A stretch of 64,000 bases of DNA from a virus. The stretch lies in UHGV virus genome UHGV-0117053. One strand, given 5' to 3'. The translations under genes were made by a program, and so were the position numbers. The first letter of the stretch is position 1; every line of letters starts with the position of its first letter. The notes beneath the pieces were generated by a model that was given only the letters and a program-made list of their open reading frames with translations, made no database searches and was not told the origin of the DNA. Of this stretch, positions 8,364-26,880 are shown one piece after another.

Positions 8364-8390
8364 ATCCCGCCAATCGGCGGGATTTTTTTT
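8364..8390. terminator. Rho-independent terminator between convergent operons
   Basis: ATCCCGCC-AATC-GGCGGGAT perfect stem followed by T8. Confidence 0.7.
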
Positions 8391-9171
8391 AATCGCTTTC
8401 CACTTCTTCCGTGGTGTTTTCTTGCAGTTCTGTTAATGCAGCACGACATAGGTTCCGGGCATTGGCTATAGCCACACTTTTGACTTCATCCGTCATCGTG
8501 CAGGTAATGTACTGATCGAGTTCTTCAGCGCGGATGATGCTTTTGCCAATCAGAAACTGTATTTGCCAGAGCAGATCGGCATCCATAATCAGAATTTCTG
8601 CCGGGCCTTCAGGGCCAGCCGGGAAGGAAACATAAGACTGTTTGCCCAGGCCGACAACTCGACAACTTGCTTCAAGAATTGCGCGCTTGAGGTCTGACTT
8701 TATAACGGAAACAGGTTGATTTTCACCAGTGATTACGCCGTTGACATGGAAAGGCATGTAGCTTGAAATACGCTCCACTTTCCACACGCCAGCAAGCGAT
8801 CCTTCATGCAGCACAATGGGGGTAACCGCGAGTTTCATCTCACCATATAGCTGCTGGCAGATAGCTGGATTGCTGAATACATCTAAAGGCTCACATTCAA
8901 ACAGCGGCGCAATCTGCATGAGGTCCATCATGGTCATCCCTGGGGTACGAGCAGTAATGAATCTGCGCATACCAGTATCCATTGCGCTCCAGATTGCTAC
9001 ACCATGCTTTTTGCTCACTTCTTCAGTAAAGCCAAGGTGGCACATGATGGTTTTTTCGATAGCCAGATCAGAGATCGAAACCTTTTCGCCAGGCACACCA
9101 TCATTATTGATGGTCACTTCGACACTCTGACCATTACGCAGGCGGTATTGAATTGCTTTAGTATTTTCCAC
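8389..9171 (-). CDS. Hypothetical protein (GTG start), coupled to the upstream DUF2829 gene
   Basis: 260 aa; GTG start at 9171 preceded by GGAG; 7 nt after the stop of the upstream gene. Confidence 0.6.
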   Translation of the reverse strand: MENTKAIQYRLRNGQSVEVTINNDGVPGEKVSISDLAIEKTIMCHLGFTEEVSKKHGVAIWSAMDTGMRRFITARTPGMTMMDLMQIAPLFECEPLDVFSNPAICQQLYGEMKLAVTPIVLHEGSLAGVWKVERISSYMPFHVNGVITGENQPVSVIKSDLKRAILEASCRVVGLGKQSYVSFPAGPEGPAEILIMDADLLWQIQFLIGKSIIRAEELDQYITCTMTDEVKSVAIANARNLCRAALTELQENTTEEVESD

Positions 9172-9177
9172 GTTAAA

Positions 9178-9855
9178 TCACTCCACTACAAACCAGTCAC
9201 ATGCCAGTAAGTCGCCTACAGAAGGAACCCACGGAACAACTACACCTTGTGCATTTTTTAAGGCGAAATAAGCACCATACGGAACGAGGTCGCCGGGGAA
9301 ATATCCCTTAATGGCTTCCATTCGTGCCGGGTACTGTCCTTCAGGAACCAGCCAGCAGAATTGGTTTTCGCCGTTCCACCCGCGTCGAGCAACTTTCTTG
9401 CCATCCTTCAGCCACATCAGCGCGTCAGAAAAGTCGGCTGCTTCAAGGTCGATTTCTTCTTGTGTGGTAATGATGCCACTGGCAGCAATAGTTACGTCCC
9501 TGGCTGTAATGGATGTCACCCCATTGTGACCTTCAATAATGAGCGATACCCCATTTTCGAAGAAGTCGTTAGTCCGACTAAAGCCTTCTTCAAATGTTTT
9601 TTCTGGTGAATAGGACAGAGAACCGTCCTCATAAGCGACCAGATATCCGCCAATTTCTGGTCGGTGTTTTTGCAAAAACATTTTATCAACATGGACTTTT
9701 ACCCCTTCTGGCTCAACGACTTCGATGTTGCAAAAAAGGACCACATCCATTAGGGCGATAATTTCGATATCTTTGATTTTTGAGGCGCGAACTGTTTTAT
9801 GGCTTTTGTATTTTGGAAGTGCCGTCAAAAGCTCTTTCGTTGTCATGTTATTCAT
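9178..9855 (-). CDS. Two-domain protein with C-terminal DUF2829 (Tad2-like) domain
   Basis: C-terminal LKDGKKVARRGWNGENQF...VVPWVPSVGDLLACDWFVVE matches the DUF2829 signature; ATG at 9855 has GAGGAAAG RBS (track ORF begins at an upstream TTG). Confidence 0.65.
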   Translation of the reverse strand: MNNMTTKELLTALPKYKSHKTVRASKIKDIEIIALMDVVLFCNIEVVEPEGVKVHVDKMFLQKHRPEIGGYLVAYEDGSLSYSPEKTFEEGFSRTNDFFENGVSLIIEGHNGVTSITARDVTIAASGIITTQEEIDLEAADFSDALMWLKDGKKVARRGWNGENQFCWLVPEGQYPARMEAIKGYFPGDLVPYGAYFALKNAQGVVVPWVPSVGDLLACDWFVVE

Positions 9856-10052
9856 AGTCTTTCCTCTGCTTAAAACCTGATGTATTGCGCCTTCAGGTGG
9901 GTCAGGAATGTTTTCCCACCAGCGAAAGCAATATCTCGGGGTGTTCTTTTCGTGAAAAGCGCGTGCCATTGCCAACTTTGGCGTTTGTTTGCGAGTTCGT
10001 GCTTTTGTCGGCGTCTGGACTACCGCTTTTCTTTCAGTCGTTTTTTACACAT

Positions 10053-10541
10053 TCAAAACGGAATATCGTCGTCAAAGTCCATTGGAGGTTCGTTATTGGC
10101 GTTGCTCTGAGGTTTACCGCCACCACTGTATTGCTGGTGGTTTTGAGGTTGGTTTGATTGCCCCCAGCCATTTGAGGACTGTGAATCGTCACGGCGAGCG
10201 CCGATCATTTGCATGGTGCCGCCCTGGCTGACGATAATTTCCGTCGTGTAACGTTCTACACCGGCGTCATCTGTCCACTTACGGGTTTTAAGTTTCCCTT
10301 CGATGTAGACCTGAGAACCTTTTCGTAAATACTCACTCGCAATTTCAGCAAGTTTTCCGAACAAAACGACTTTATGCCATTCTGTTTGCTCTTTCTGTTG
10401 GCCCGTTTGCTTGTCCCGCCATGATTCATTCGTTGCGATGCTGAGTCTTCCGACCGCGCCGCCATTTGGTATATACCTGATCTCCGGGTCTTGCCCCAGG
10501 GTACCAATCAGGATGACTTTGTTTACACCGCGTTGTGCCAC
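10053..10541 (-). CDS. ssb: Single-stranded DNA-binding protein
   Basis: Near-identical pattern to E. coli SSB: OB fold, Gly/Gln-rich linker, C-terminal [11 protein letters not shown]. Confidence 0.95.
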
Positions 10542-10560: not shown

Positions 10561-10577
10561 AAATTAATTAGAGCAAT
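10561..10577 (-). promoter_or_regulatory. C1 repressor operator (AAATTAATTAGAGCAAT, 1 mismatch to consensus)
   Basis: Match to P1 C1 operator consensus ATTGCTCTAATAAATTT in the ssb/lyz divergent region. Confidence 0.7.
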
Positions 10578-21889: not shown

Positions 21890-23197
21890 TTACACTATAT
21901 TCTTAACTATAAGGTTGGCGTCCTTCAAGGTGCCTAATGTTTCAATGTGGTTTTTTATCATTAATCTATTTGAGGCAATTATTGCAGGCCATCGTGTTTC
22001 CCAAGCTCTGTAAGCATGCCAAGAAACTCCCCAATTCCTTTCTTTACTCATATGACCCATCGAGTATTCAACTGCGTCTAAATATGTTTTTTCATACTTA
22101 GTATTGCTAACCTCTATGATGCTTCCAAAATATATAAGCCATTTTGCCAACTGTTCATATTGCTCCCACGCTCCGTTATTCCTTGTTAACTTTCTCTTTT
22201 TTTCTATTATCCTTTCGAAAAGAGAAACGACTTTATCATCATTCCAATCTAAACCTTCCGATATAATTGATGATATAATTTGATAAAATGAATCCTCTAA
22301 TTTAAGATATTCATTTTTATAAGTGTAAGCCCCCGAAACAACTTTTCTGATATTTTCGCGCGCTCTTTCAATGATGTCTTTAATGAGAGAAATCTTATAA
22401 CTTAATCGACTAAAGAAACAATCTATTTCTGTATTGTCAATTACCCTTATACCAAAGCAATAGAAGTAATAATCCTTCATATCTTGACTTACTTTGTTGC
22501 GAGATATCAAAAAGATATTAGAGCACAGGGCATTATTTTTCGAAAATTTTTTATAGTCATTTATAATTGCTTTAAGATTTGTGTCGCTTAAAGAATACCC
22601 TAATATCGCAACTGTATTTTCATGCAGCATCGTACTAAGTTTTCGTGAAAAATAAGTATCGGAATTTATAAATCTGAAGTAATCATCTGAAGTGACAATC
22701 ATATTTTTTGGCGAATCAATAGAACCATGAACATGATATATTTTCACCTTGGATGGATACTTTGGAATTGGCAGACCGGGCGTGATAGACTGCACACTTT
22801 CATCTCCAACCAAGCATTCAGCCAACTTGTCATAATTTGTTGTAATGACACGGAATGAGTTTTTTTGGAAAAAATCTTTTATATTTGATATGTCTTCTCC
22901 AAGTTGAATTGGAGATATGATGTCAACAATTTCATCATAAATCGACTTACCCTCAATATTGAGCTTCAAAGATAGTATTTGTGCGGCTTCTTCAAGACTC
23001 AGTGCTGGTGGTTTATCATCAGGGAATAACGTGTCTTCCAACTTTTTGGCATTGTGAACTTTGCTGCAAACTTTTTTTAATAGTTCCTTCCACGTTGGAG
23101 CTTCACCGTTCGAGACTGCCTTTGAAAAGCCAGTCCCGGTAAATAGACAAAGCCTGCTTGTAGCGGCAGCGTATGCTAACTCAACATATTCGCTCAT
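21890..23197 (-). CDS. SIR2-like (sirtuin-fold NADase-type) protein, candidate antiphage effector
   Basis: 435 aa; motifs LFTGTGFS, ITTNYDKLAE, YHVHGS, ILGYSLSD in SIR2 order; AT-rich codon usage unlike flanking backbone; GGAG RBS. Confidence 0.85.
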   Translation of the reverse strand: MSEYVELAYAAATSRLCLFTGTGFSKAVSNGEAPTWKELLKKVCSKVHNAKKLEDTLFPDDKPPALSLEEAAQILSLKLNIEGKSIYDEIVDIISPIQLGEDISNIKDFFQKNSFRVITTNYDKLAECLVGDESVQSITPGLPIPKYPSKVKIYHVHGSIDSPKNMIVTSDDYFRFINSDTYFSRKLSTMLHENTVAILGYSLSDTNLKAIINDYKKFSKNNALCSNIFLISRNKVSQDMKDYYFYCFGIRVIDNTEIDCFFSRLSYKISLIKDIIERARENIRKVVSGAYTYKNEYLKLEDSFYQIISSIISEGLDWNDDKVVSLFERIIEKKRKLTRNNGAWEQYEQLAKWLIYFGSIIEVSNTKYEKTYLDAVEYSMGHMSKERNWGVSWHAYRAWETRWPAIIASNRLMIKNHIETLGTLKDANLIVKNIV

Positions 23198-23253: not shown

Positions 23254-23895
23254 TTATAGATAATTTCCTTTTCCAGTTAACTCCCCTTTAGGCACCCGTT
23301 TTTGTGCCAGCGTTTGGGTTCCGCGAATTATGTTAATCAGAGGGCTTAGTAACGATGATTCCTGGCGGGCATCAACTTCTCCTGCCATTGCCCTAATGTA
23401 GTCGGCGCTTGCAACGTTGTTATATTCCGTTGCGAAGCAGCATAACAACGTCAGAACGTGCTCTGTCGTTATTTCGCTCCAGTTGATGTTGAAAAATTCA
23501 TCGCCTTTTTTATCGTGTTCGGAATCGAAGATGCTTTGGTGGAGGATGTATTTGCCGGATTCCTTGCGCGGTAACTTGATTGCTTTCTGGCGTTCCAGCT
23601 CCTTATAAATCTGCATTGCCTCATTTAGTACCGGCCTGCCGTTCATGAAGGGATCGCGCAACCTTACACGCTGGCCAACTCGACCAGTAATAAAGCTGTT
23701 TTCCTCTTCCACCAGCACGATAAAACCCTTTTCCTCTTTTTCTCGCAATTCGCGCAGCAGCTGGAGTTCCATATCGCGGCGGCGTTCAGGGTAGCTGGTC
23801 CGCTCAGCCATTATCAGCTCGTTATTGATCCATGCAGCAGTCATTGATGCCGGTTTGCCGACGCTCATCGAAACAACGCATATTTTCTTATCCAT
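23254..23895 (-). CDS. Hypothetical protein (213 aa), possibly the P1 mat equivalent
   Basis: Backbone-like GC; ATG at 23895 preceded by GGGGG; sits between ref and the SIR2 gene on the same strand. Confidence 0.6.
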   Translation of the reverse strand: MDKKICVVSMSVGKPASMTAAWINNELIMAERTSYPERRRDMELQLLRELREKEEKGFIVLVEEENSFITGRVGQRVRLRDPFMNGRPVLNEAMQIYKELERQKAIKLPRKESGKYILHQSIFDSEHDKKGDEFFNINWSEITTEHVLTLLCCFATEYNNVASADYIRAMAGEVDARQESSLLSPLINIIRGTQTLAQKRVPKGELTGKGNYL

Positions 23896-24084
23896 AGCGC
23901 CCCCTACAAAAAAGAAAAGCCACCAGCGGCGGCTTAGCAATACAACTGAAGGTAGCGCCCGGTACTCAGACTGTGCCGTCCATGGAATATTTGAAAAGGG
24001 ATCCATCCGTACCGGGCATGTGATGATTCTGACTGAAGTCACTTGTCAGTTGTCAATTATTTCAGATTAAAAATAATATATTTA

Positions 24085-26780: not shown

Positions 26781-26797
26781 AGAATTATTAGAGCAAT
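26781..26797 (-). promoter_or_regulatory. C1 operator (immC region)
   Basis: AGAATTATTAGAGCAAT, 2 mismatches to consensus. Confidence 0.7.
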
Positions 26798-26863
26798 AAA
26801 TTTTGAGAGAAAAATCCCACTCCACCAGCCAAAAACTGGATTGTTTTTCATAGTTGTTTGACA

Positions 26864-26880
26864 ATTGCTCTAATAAATTA
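26864..26880 (+). promoter_or_regulatory. C1 operator (immC region)
   Basis: ATTGCTCTAATAAATTA, near-perfect consensus, upstream of coi-c1. Confidence 0.8.

Follow-up and report, generated by a model that had tools for sequence, protein, structure and literature searches.

Tad2 proteins are phage-encoded sponges that sequester the nucleotide signals of host immunity. The founding member, SPO1 Tad2 (gp34.65; PDB 8SME/F/G), is an early phage protein that soaks up 1''-3' glyco-cyclic ADP-ribose (gcADPR) and targets type I Thoeris; its helix alpha1 mediates tetramerisation. ModTad2 (also designated MoTad2), from a Myroides odoratus prophage, blocks type II Thoeris, though not type I, by sequestering histidine-ADP-ribose (His-ADPR) (preprint 10.1101/2024.01.03.573942). 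A second pocket of this protein binds cyclic UMP (cUMP) and cyclic CMP (cCMP) and blocks both Pycsar systems (10.1101/2025.08.24.671296). Tad2 is also found as a module of larger proteins, since natural Acb4-Tad2 (Pasteurella phage Pm86), Tad2-Sequestin, and Sequestin-Acb4 fusions have been described, one Acb4-Tad2 fusion being active against both targets (10.1101/2025.07.12.664507). Here, we report the analysis of a 64,000-nucleotide stretch of the UHGV virus genome UHGV-0117053 (hereafter the window), in which a gene at positions 9178 to 9855 encodes a Tad2 domain preceded by an OB-fold (oligonucleotide/oligosaccharide-binding fold) and a beta-rich stalk. This gene is probably an early anti-defence gene of a P1-like (IncY) phage-plasmid, encoding a C1-repressed signal sponge, most likely for His-ADPR.

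The gene order of the window is that of P1 (ddrB, hxr / isaA, Tad2 gene, ssb / lyz, pro, prt, darB), and the region matches Salmonella phage SJ46 at 98.8% identity, other P1-like elements also providing matches. The open reading frame (ORF) is intact, with an ATG start and a TGA stop at 9178-9180. Its 225-residue product is 100% identical to WP_112901341.1, a coding sequence called by PGAP and labelled 'DUF2829 domain-containing protein'. The latter is encoded by the same 678-nt sequence in the E. coli plasmid p886Rt_IncY (NZ_CP080083.1; 93 kb, IncY, non-mobilizable). The start MNNMTTKE is common to the PGAP call and to all full-length homologues; the longer start used in the annotation of SJ46 and of P1 isaA is impossible in the window, where the codon is GTA. 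The gene comprises the following features.

9178..9855, minus strand: 225-aa three-module gene (OB-fold, stalk, Tad2 domain)
9859..9866, minus strand: Shine-Dalgarno-like sequence GAGGAAAG, ending 3 nt from the ATG; in laboratory P1, isaA relies on this site and this ATG (sequence reading and alignment)
9565..9825, minus strand: Dec-like OB-fold domain, residues ~11-97, with no Pfam or NCBIfam model
9445..9564, minus strand: beta-rich linker or 'stalk', residues 98-137, ending in the conserved junction EIDLEAADFSD
9181..9444, minus strand: Tad2 (DUF2829) domain, residues 138-225, assigned to the ModTad2/Tad2_68 clade

The Tad2 domain and its likely ligand

A reading of the letters of the window (the sequence-only reading) had recognised a DUF2829 signature in the C-terminal ~85 residues. 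The sequence that it quoted is present, and the Pfam model PF11195 'Tad2-like' matched residues 141-224 (E=1.6e-22; 80.3 bits against a cut-off of 25; profile positions 2-73 of 73). Searches of PDB chains with phmmer retrieved ModTad2 (8V3E, apo; 9EIB, with His-ADPR) at E~1e-20, with 86 residues aligned and one 1-residue gap, followed by HgmTad2/AcrIIA7 (8.5e-12), SPO1 Tad2 (1e-9), and SptTad2. A further phmmer run on PDB sequences scored ModTad2 at E~6e-20 and SPO1 Tad2 at 6.5e-9. In an AlphaFold2 model based on 39 homologues, the domain was predicted with a pLDDT (predicted local distance difference test) of 80-89 except for the loop 181-190, and consisted of a helix (142-150), four strands (154-157, 166-170, 196-200, and 206-209), a second helix (213-217), and a last strand (221-224). 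Comparison of the model with known structures by Foldseek also matched Tad2, since the best 24 PDB matches were all Tad2 structures (probability 1.00; template-modelling (TM) score of 0.6-0.9 normalised to the target), headed by ModTad2 with His-ADPR (9EIB, E=1.4e-7) and then apo ModTad2, SPO1 Tad2, and HgmTad2. The motifs RRGWNGE and PWVPSVGDLLACDW are present, and the columns of GWNG (W160), W209-x-PS, D215, and D220-W221 are invariant or nearly so in the 39 homologues. Residues 138-225 are a Tad2/DUF2829 domain.

SPO1 Tad2 shares its fold and motifs (GWNG, C-terminal DW) with the window domain at ~34% identity (TM 0.7-0.8 normalised to the target), but is more distant than the ModTad2 clade, differs in its central region, and lacks an N-terminal module. 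ModTad2 and Tad2_68, the latter from an IMG/VR metagenome, belong to the same Pfam family and the same clade, and the top structural matches fall there. Both are stand-alone proteins of ~88 aa, whereas the window protein has 137 additional N-terminal residues. This extension, which the sequence-only reading had proposed as a fused domain, is real and conserved among homologues. With 225 aa and three modules, the protein is unlike the typical stand-alone Tad2 of ~70-110 aa, although fused or extended members are known (AcrIIA7, 158 aa; Acb4-Tad2).

To assess the ligand, the domain was compared with 14 tested Tad2 homologues and the MoTad2 control, taken from Table S2 of 10.1101/2025.08.24.671296. 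The nearest tested relatives were, over the full ~87 aa of the domain, Tad2_68 (65-68% identity) and MoTad2 (45%), the others compared being at most 38% identical. In that study, Tad2_68 was scored y/y/y against type II Thoeris and 'validated' against type I, and was negative against type IV Thoeris, both CBASS (cyclic oligonucleotide-based antiphage signalling) systems, and both Pycsar systems; MoTad2 gave no inhibition of type IV Thoeris. On these identities, we infer that the window domain belongs to the His-ADPR-binding clade. Because ligand specificity is plastic in the Tad2 family, the case for His-ADPR, the type II Thoeris signal, as the principal ligand is only about evenly balanced. 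The cyclic ADP-ribose isomers named in the sequence-only reading are probably not the main ligand, the nearest characterised relatives binding His-ADPR; Tad2_68 is, in addition, listed as inhibiting type I. The Tad2 domain would form the homotetramer of the family and sequester a nucleotide alarm signal, derived from Toll/interleukin-1 receptor (TIR) proteins, before activation of the effector. Sequestration would keep the Thoeris effector inactive, thereby disarming the signalling defence of the host. Additional ligands might include 3' cyclic ADP-ribose (3'cADPR) and the Pycsar signals cUMP and cCMP.

An OB-fold module shared with sponge proteins and with phage L Dec

Residues 1-139 gave no Pfam match at E<=1, and the full-length protein gave no NCBIfam or PADLOC match. 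The N-terminal part matched only PHROGs 11049 and 872, both of unknown function. In the AlphaFold2 model, residues ~11-97 form a small barrel (pLDDT 85-96) with the elements of an OB-fold, namely strands 21-35, 38-46, and 53-57, helix 58-64, strands 71-74 and 80-83, and helix 85-91. The stalk that follows was modelled as four strands at 103-131 (pLDDT ~50-60). A profile built from 19 N-terminal domains had one significant match in the PDB, the decoration protein Dec of phage L (6E3C, E=1.8e-5), with which it has the motif PE(V/I)GGYL...G.L.Y...(T/A)FE in common. Dec consists of an OB-fold (residues 12-77), a helix (78-86), and a three-stranded beta-helix spike that forms a trimer (PMC6449081, PMC11398494). 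The order of secondary-structure elements in the N-terminal part of the window protein is the order published for Dec. Pairwise BLASTP to Dec (epsilon34 gp71) revealed 28% identity over window residues 65-139, extending from the OB-fold into the spike region; this weak alignment reaches Dec residues 100-124, where TARDVTIA is paired with TARTITL. The N-terminal 135 residues are thus co-linear with Dec (OB-fold, helix, and beta-rich stalk), the homology in the stalk being weak. The OB-fold also contains conserved basic residues (H19, K20, and K63/H64).

Of the relatives of the N-terminal module, Dec alone has been characterised; it has the same OB-fold topology, the motif PE(V/I)GGYL...Y...(S/M)...(T/A)FE in common with the module, and then a beta-rich region. 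Dec is, however, a 134-aa late structural protein that binds capsids as a trimer, whereas the module of the window is encoded in an early operon and fused to a predicted cytoplasmic sponge. The stalk of the window protein is also shorter than that of Dec and was modelled with low confidence. For the N-terminal module, which is separable and swappable, the likeliest roles are an anti-defence activity of its own or that of a scaffold through which the sponge would be oligomerised or targeted.

When published, the OB-fold of Dec was described as novel, with P22-like phages as its only known source; it is a divergent member of a family of small phage proteins comprising at least 5,600 clusters. 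In phage epsilon34, dec (L007, 2471-2875) occupies an accessory slot that separates the lysis genes from the end of the genome; in the lambdoid phage Bas106, this slot holds a stalk-less homologue (L005, 3989-4276).

An exhaustive search with a hidden Markov model (HMM) profile of stand-alone OB members yielded, at 50% identity, 5,681 clusters for a threshold of E<=1e-3 and 4,018 for E<=1e-10, mostly of stand-alone phage proteins of ~85-95 aa. In a word-indexed search, most matches were proteins of 80-100 aa with no Pfam domain. The 76 longer members carried domains of five Pfam families only: Sequestin PF21825 (6), the Acb2/Tad1 hairpin PF24729 (3), DUF551 (3), Acb4 PF13876 (2), and Tad2 (2). 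One further OB member (P0216) carries the RecBCD-inhibitor domain of T7 gp5.9, and a MazG-like protein of a Vibrio phage contains the OB domain. Recognisable partners of the OB domain were thus, with few exceptions, established anti-defence modules. Fusions to sponge families are exemplified by the following proteins, which come from local phmmer runs and are in part outside the set of 76.

OB-fold with Acb4: P0315, P0304
OB-fold with Sequestin: P0341, P0309, P0357, P0171, P0360
OB-fold with the Acb2/Tad1 hairpin: P0170, P0270, P0344
OB-fold with Tad2: P0299, P0273, P0164, P0203

The resemblance to the described sponge-sponge fusions is that Tad2 is one module of a multi-domain anti-defence protein, and close relatives of the window Tad2 domain do carry Sequestin (P0060, P0063, P0072, P0106). 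The difference is that the partner in the window is neither Acb4 nor Sequestin but an OB-fold with no database model. Indeed, the N-terminal module did not match Acb4 PF13876, Sequestin PF21825, or Acb2/Tad1 PF24729, either by profile or by fold. Sequestin was discovered through a search for Pfam families that occur in fusion with Tad2 or Acb4 (Tal et al., 10.1101/2025.07.12.664507); a domain devoid of a Pfam model would have escaped such a search, and our literature search found no paper describing the OB domain. The OB domain as a recurrent partner of every major sponge family is new here, and the OB-stalk-Tad2 architecture is a new variant.

The neighbourhoods of four stand-alone OB genes were mixed: one includes Tad2 and Acb4, two, of metagenomic origin, are near portal genes, and one is uninformative. 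The first of these, in a JGI metagenome contig of 65,992 bp (L013, 3319-5445), has stand-alone genes for Tad2 (91 aa), the OB protein (85 aa), and Acb4 (92 aa) grouped within 2 kb in a stretch of small genes that lies immediately upstream of the terminase gene, and is a probable anti-defence island that includes an OB protein. That the OB family as a whole is a large anti-defence domain family overlooked by the databases is a tentative proposal, which we consider possible but somewhat doubtful. In one version of this proposal, the OB domain would be a further nucleotide-signal sponge. In another, which is speculative, the domain would bind and mask the phage coat protein as Dec does, and the fusion would then block both sensing and signalling. 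The latter version stems from the observation that Thoeris TIR proteins sense phage capsid proteins (PMC12578639), so that a Dec-like coat-binding domain could mask the trigger. Escape from type IV Thoeris maps to a capsid vertex protein, and coat proteins have been implicated as the trigger of other signalling systems too.

Operon context and distribution among phage-plasmids

The position of the Tad2 gene after ssb and behind a C1 operator, noted in the sequence-only reading, was borne out, the operator being the equivalent of P1 Op21. The features surrounding the gene are the following.

10561..10577, minus strand: C1 repressor operator ATTGCTCTAATTAATTT, 1 mismatch to the consensus ATTGCTCTAATAAATTT, overlapping the ssb promoters; corresponds to P1 Ossb/Op21 (P1 annotation)
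10053..10541, minus strand: ssb, first gene of the operon (Pfam SSB, E=7e-40; annotated ssb in SJ46 and P1)
9856..10052, minus strand: 197-nt untranslated spacer from ssb to the Tad2 gene, nearly identical in P1, SJ46, and the window
9181..9184, minus strand: GGAG in the last codons of the Tad2 gene, likely ribosome binding site (RBS) of the isaA homologue (sequence reading GTGGAGTGATTTAACGTG)
8389..9171, minus strand: isaA homologue, 260 aa, GTG start at 9171 (alignment to P1 isaA)
8364..8391, no strand assigned: GC-rich hairpin ATCCCGCC-AATC-GGCGGGAT followed by a T run; on visual inspection, a putative bidirectional terminator for hxr (plus strand) and the ssb operon (minus strand)

A consensus scan of the minus strand from ssb to the Tad2 gene detected no terminator-like site and no promoter match. 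The 197-nt spacer had no above-threshold Rfam family and a folding z-score of -1.25. P1 biology, together with the fact that no terminator separates the two genes, suggests early expression: if C1 is absent, upon infection or induction, the Tad2 gene would be transcribed together with ssb from the Op21-controlled promoters, and if C1 is present, in the lysogen, the gene would be silent. The hairpin at 8364..8391 was not reported by the consensus terminator scan, and sub-threshold Rfam matches of the leader or terminator type cluster there. Translational coupling to the 260-aa GTG-start gene, as previously suggested, is plausible, since the GTG is located 6 nt past the stop codon and the GGAG lies within the Tad2 gene, although the two genes do not overlap. 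The IsaA homologue matched PHROG 2326 (1.5e-149), of function unknown, and had no Pfam, NCBIfam, PADLOC, or PDB match; its relatives are confined to P1-like elements.

Laboratory P1 does not carry the Tad2 gene. In a three-way DNA alignment of the window, SJ46, and P1, the sequences are near-identical from ssb to the RBS and ATG, after which P1 goes straight into isaA (MTAQNTKTIQYRLRNG...), whereas the window and SJ46 first have the 678-nt gene and then isaA (M-ENTKAIQYRLRNG...). This alignment indicates that the Tad2 gene is an accessory cassette located exactly at the 5' end of isaA and using the translation signals of the latter gene. Downstream of isaA, P1 contains IS1 and isaB, both absent from the window. 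The possibility that P1 isaA (320 aa) is a read-through fusion of the Tad2 gene and the next gene was considered and rejected, since the DNA alignment revealed that the gene is missing and that isaA starts at the same RBS and ATG. In the P1 reference (L002 = NC_005856, 4001-4963), IsaA is annotated as a 320-aa protein starting at a GTG 30 nt after ssb, the codon that is GTA in the window. The RBS and ATG common to P1 isaA and the window Tad2 gene are located 168 nt farther downstream than this annotated start. The start of P1 IsaA is thus probably annotated too far upstream, the true product being of ~264 aa.

Homologues covering at least 80% of the protein were found in 239 plasmids of PLSDB, which originate from Escherichia, Salmonella, Klebsiella, and Shigella and are nearly all non-mobilizable, with a size of ~90-100 kb; isaA is present in 329-406 PLSDB plasmids. 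The occurrence of Tad2 in the P1/D6 lineage is already on record through automated annotation and is not new: a DefenseFinder survey reported 'Tad2 AcrIIA7 (anti-Thoeris)' for 56% of the P1 phage-plasmids and 93% of those of D6 type (2025 preprint, 10.1101/2025.09.12.675607), and a preprint of 2026 refers to a gut phage that has tad2 and the dar genes of P1. In phage RCS47 (FO818745.1, 15495-15950), a copy covering residues 1-152 only, annotated 'part 1', adjoins an inverted repeat and was apparently disrupted by an insertion.

Phage D6 orf114 (DUF2829) is 86% identical to the window protein over residues 100-225 (stalk and Tad2), and an isaA homologue is located 6 nt downstream. The D6 locus (L017, 2085-3817) differs in that a dUTPase gene (orf115) adjoins this 146-aa stalk-plus-Tad2 gene, which has no OB domain. 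In relatives of D6, the dUTPase is fused to Tad2 (P0056), so that the module upstream of Tad2 is a dUTPase, separate or fused, instead of an OB-fold. The location is also different, beside cre in D6 and between c1/cre and humD/hot in a D6/P7-like contig (L008, 3001-4500). The spacing of 6 nt between stop and start is found in both loci, and the D6-type IsaA homologue is identical in its first 14 residues in spite of 48% identity overall. The 3' end of the Tad2 gene thus travels with the 5' end of isaA. The shared spacing and N-terminus indicate either that the 5' end of isaA contains a recombination junction or that the two genes are functionally paired.

Homologues vary independently in three parts, namely the OB alleles, the stalk alleles, of which there are at least two (NGVSLSIEGHNGVTFITARDVTIS or NGTTVIITDDNGVMINLTGSVTIS), and the central loop region of Tad2. 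The latter occurs in at least four versions, shuffled with different N-terminal domain and stalk alleles, a pattern to be expected of an arms-race gene. OB-Tad2, OB-X-Tad2, Tad2-Sequestin, OB-Tad2-Sequestin, and dUTPase-Tad2 proteins all have the conserved junction EIDLEAADFSDAL. In some P1-like alleles (P0021, P0030-P0033, P0044-P0052), EWKG replaces GWNG and the central loop is shortened (LAGSVNLH-DIQVPYGDHF); in other alleles, the loop is 20 residues longer. These loop and motif variants suggest diversification of ligand specificity at a single locus. A second recurrent module, GDWI(I/V)...G...Y.C....F..TY(E/K)P, with a weak PGDYG match, is inserted between the OB-fold and Tad2 in four proteins (P0057, P0106, P0066, P0072) and may be another accessory domain.

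Elsewhere in the window, 14 C1-operator-like 17-mers (at most 3 mismatches) were detected, against 0.25 expected by chance. Several of these sites (for example at 26781-26880, 44260-44325, and 57975-58002) form pairs that overlap or lie close together, in line with the dispersed C1 regulon of P1. The Dar genes to which the sequence-only reading had referred are present, as ddrB and, by position in the P1 gene order, darB. A SIR2 protein is likewise encoded, although nothing links it functionally to the Tad2 gene or to signalling. This 435-aa SIR2_2 protein (21890-23197, minus strand; PF13289, E=1.1e-23; PADLOC matches to PDC-S25 and to the SIR2 regions of ThsA/LmuA/Dsr) is preceded by a 262-aa ORF with no family match (23254-24042, minus strand). 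The two genes are located between darB and ref/cre, where P1 has the res/mod type III restriction-modification genes, and look like a candidate two-gene defence system of the phage-plasmid.

Alternative readings and implications

Several observations weigh against a His-ADPR sponge. The loop 181-190 of the Tad2 domain was modelled with a pLDDT below 50. The 137-residue N-terminal appendage attaches directly to helix alpha1, the helix that mediates tetramerisation in SPO1 Tad2. This poses a geometric puzzle, since Dec-type stalks and dUTPases are trimers and Tad2 is a tetramer whose interface helix comes right after the junction; if the stalk trimerises as in Dec, this would clash with the Tad2 tetramer. 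In addition, the type I Thoeris entry of Tad2_68 ('n, N/A, y') is ambiguous, and roughly one in four of the sponge homologues assayed in published work was inactive against all of seven systems. The protein might also be a sponge with another main target, be it the cUMP/cCMP of Pycsar, the 3'cADPR of type I Thoeris, the N7-cADPR of type IV Thoeris, a system native to E. coli, or the cyclic dinucleotides of CBASS. Such versatility has precedents, as MoTad2 has separate pockets for His-ADPR and cUMP, Tad2_71 is active against Thoeris of types I, II, and IV, and HgmTad2 binds cyclic dinucleotides. The variation of the central loop region between P1-like alleles is in keeping with it, as is the origin of the published Pycsar and type IV Thoeris test systems, which came from E. 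coli strains. We nevertheless regard another main target as unlikely because inhibition of type II Thoeris is common to both closest tested relatives, because Tad2_68 was negative for type IV Thoeris, CBASS, and Pycsar, and because MoTad2 did not inhibit type IV.

The co-linearity with Dec raises the alternative of a capsid decoration protein, in which OB legs would bind the P1 head, the stalk would trimerise, and Tad2 would be a distal structural or adhesive knob. This is very unlikely for a gene located in the C1-controlled early ssb operon rather than in a late or structural operon, and laboratory P1 virions are normal in its absence. The OB module is replaced by a dUTPase, or is absent, in D6-type alleles; its recognisable fusion partners are intracellular anti-defence modules; the stand-alone OB homologues have no stalk; and the homologues of Dolphis, Bas106, and SopranoGao are among small early or accessory genes. 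Finally, we give hardly any credence to an anti-CRISPR of the AcrIIA7 type or to a decaying passenger gene with no current function. The first report of a DUF2829 protein was indeed as AcrIIA7, and the PDB matches include an 'Inhibitor of Type II CRISPR-Cas system', but later work failed to confirm anti-CRISPR activity and showed gcADPR binding instead. E. coli is not known to have type II-A CRISPR. Decay is at odds with the intact ORF, with relatives of 96-98% identity whose clusters, at 90% identity, contain 140 and 453 sequences, and with the conservation of the family motifs and the presence of near full-length homologues in the 239 plasmids. The sequence-only reading was supported in all the parts open to computation, and from the sequence of the Tad2 domain we infer the activity of a signal sponge.

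Most natural P1 and D6 phage-plasmids carry a predicted counter-measure to TIR signalling immunity that the laboratory reference P1 does not have, and host-range work with laboratory P1 may understate what its wild relatives overcome. The slot of the Tad2 gene is prone to recombination and holds several pocket alleles. The OB module, of ~90 aa, with thousands of versions and fused to every major sponge family, is a candidate new anti-defence family, to which the structurally 'novel' OB-fold of Dec is now linked. If it is true that the OB domain masks capsids from TIR or cyclase sensors, this would represent a mechanism of anti-sensing rather than anti-signalling.

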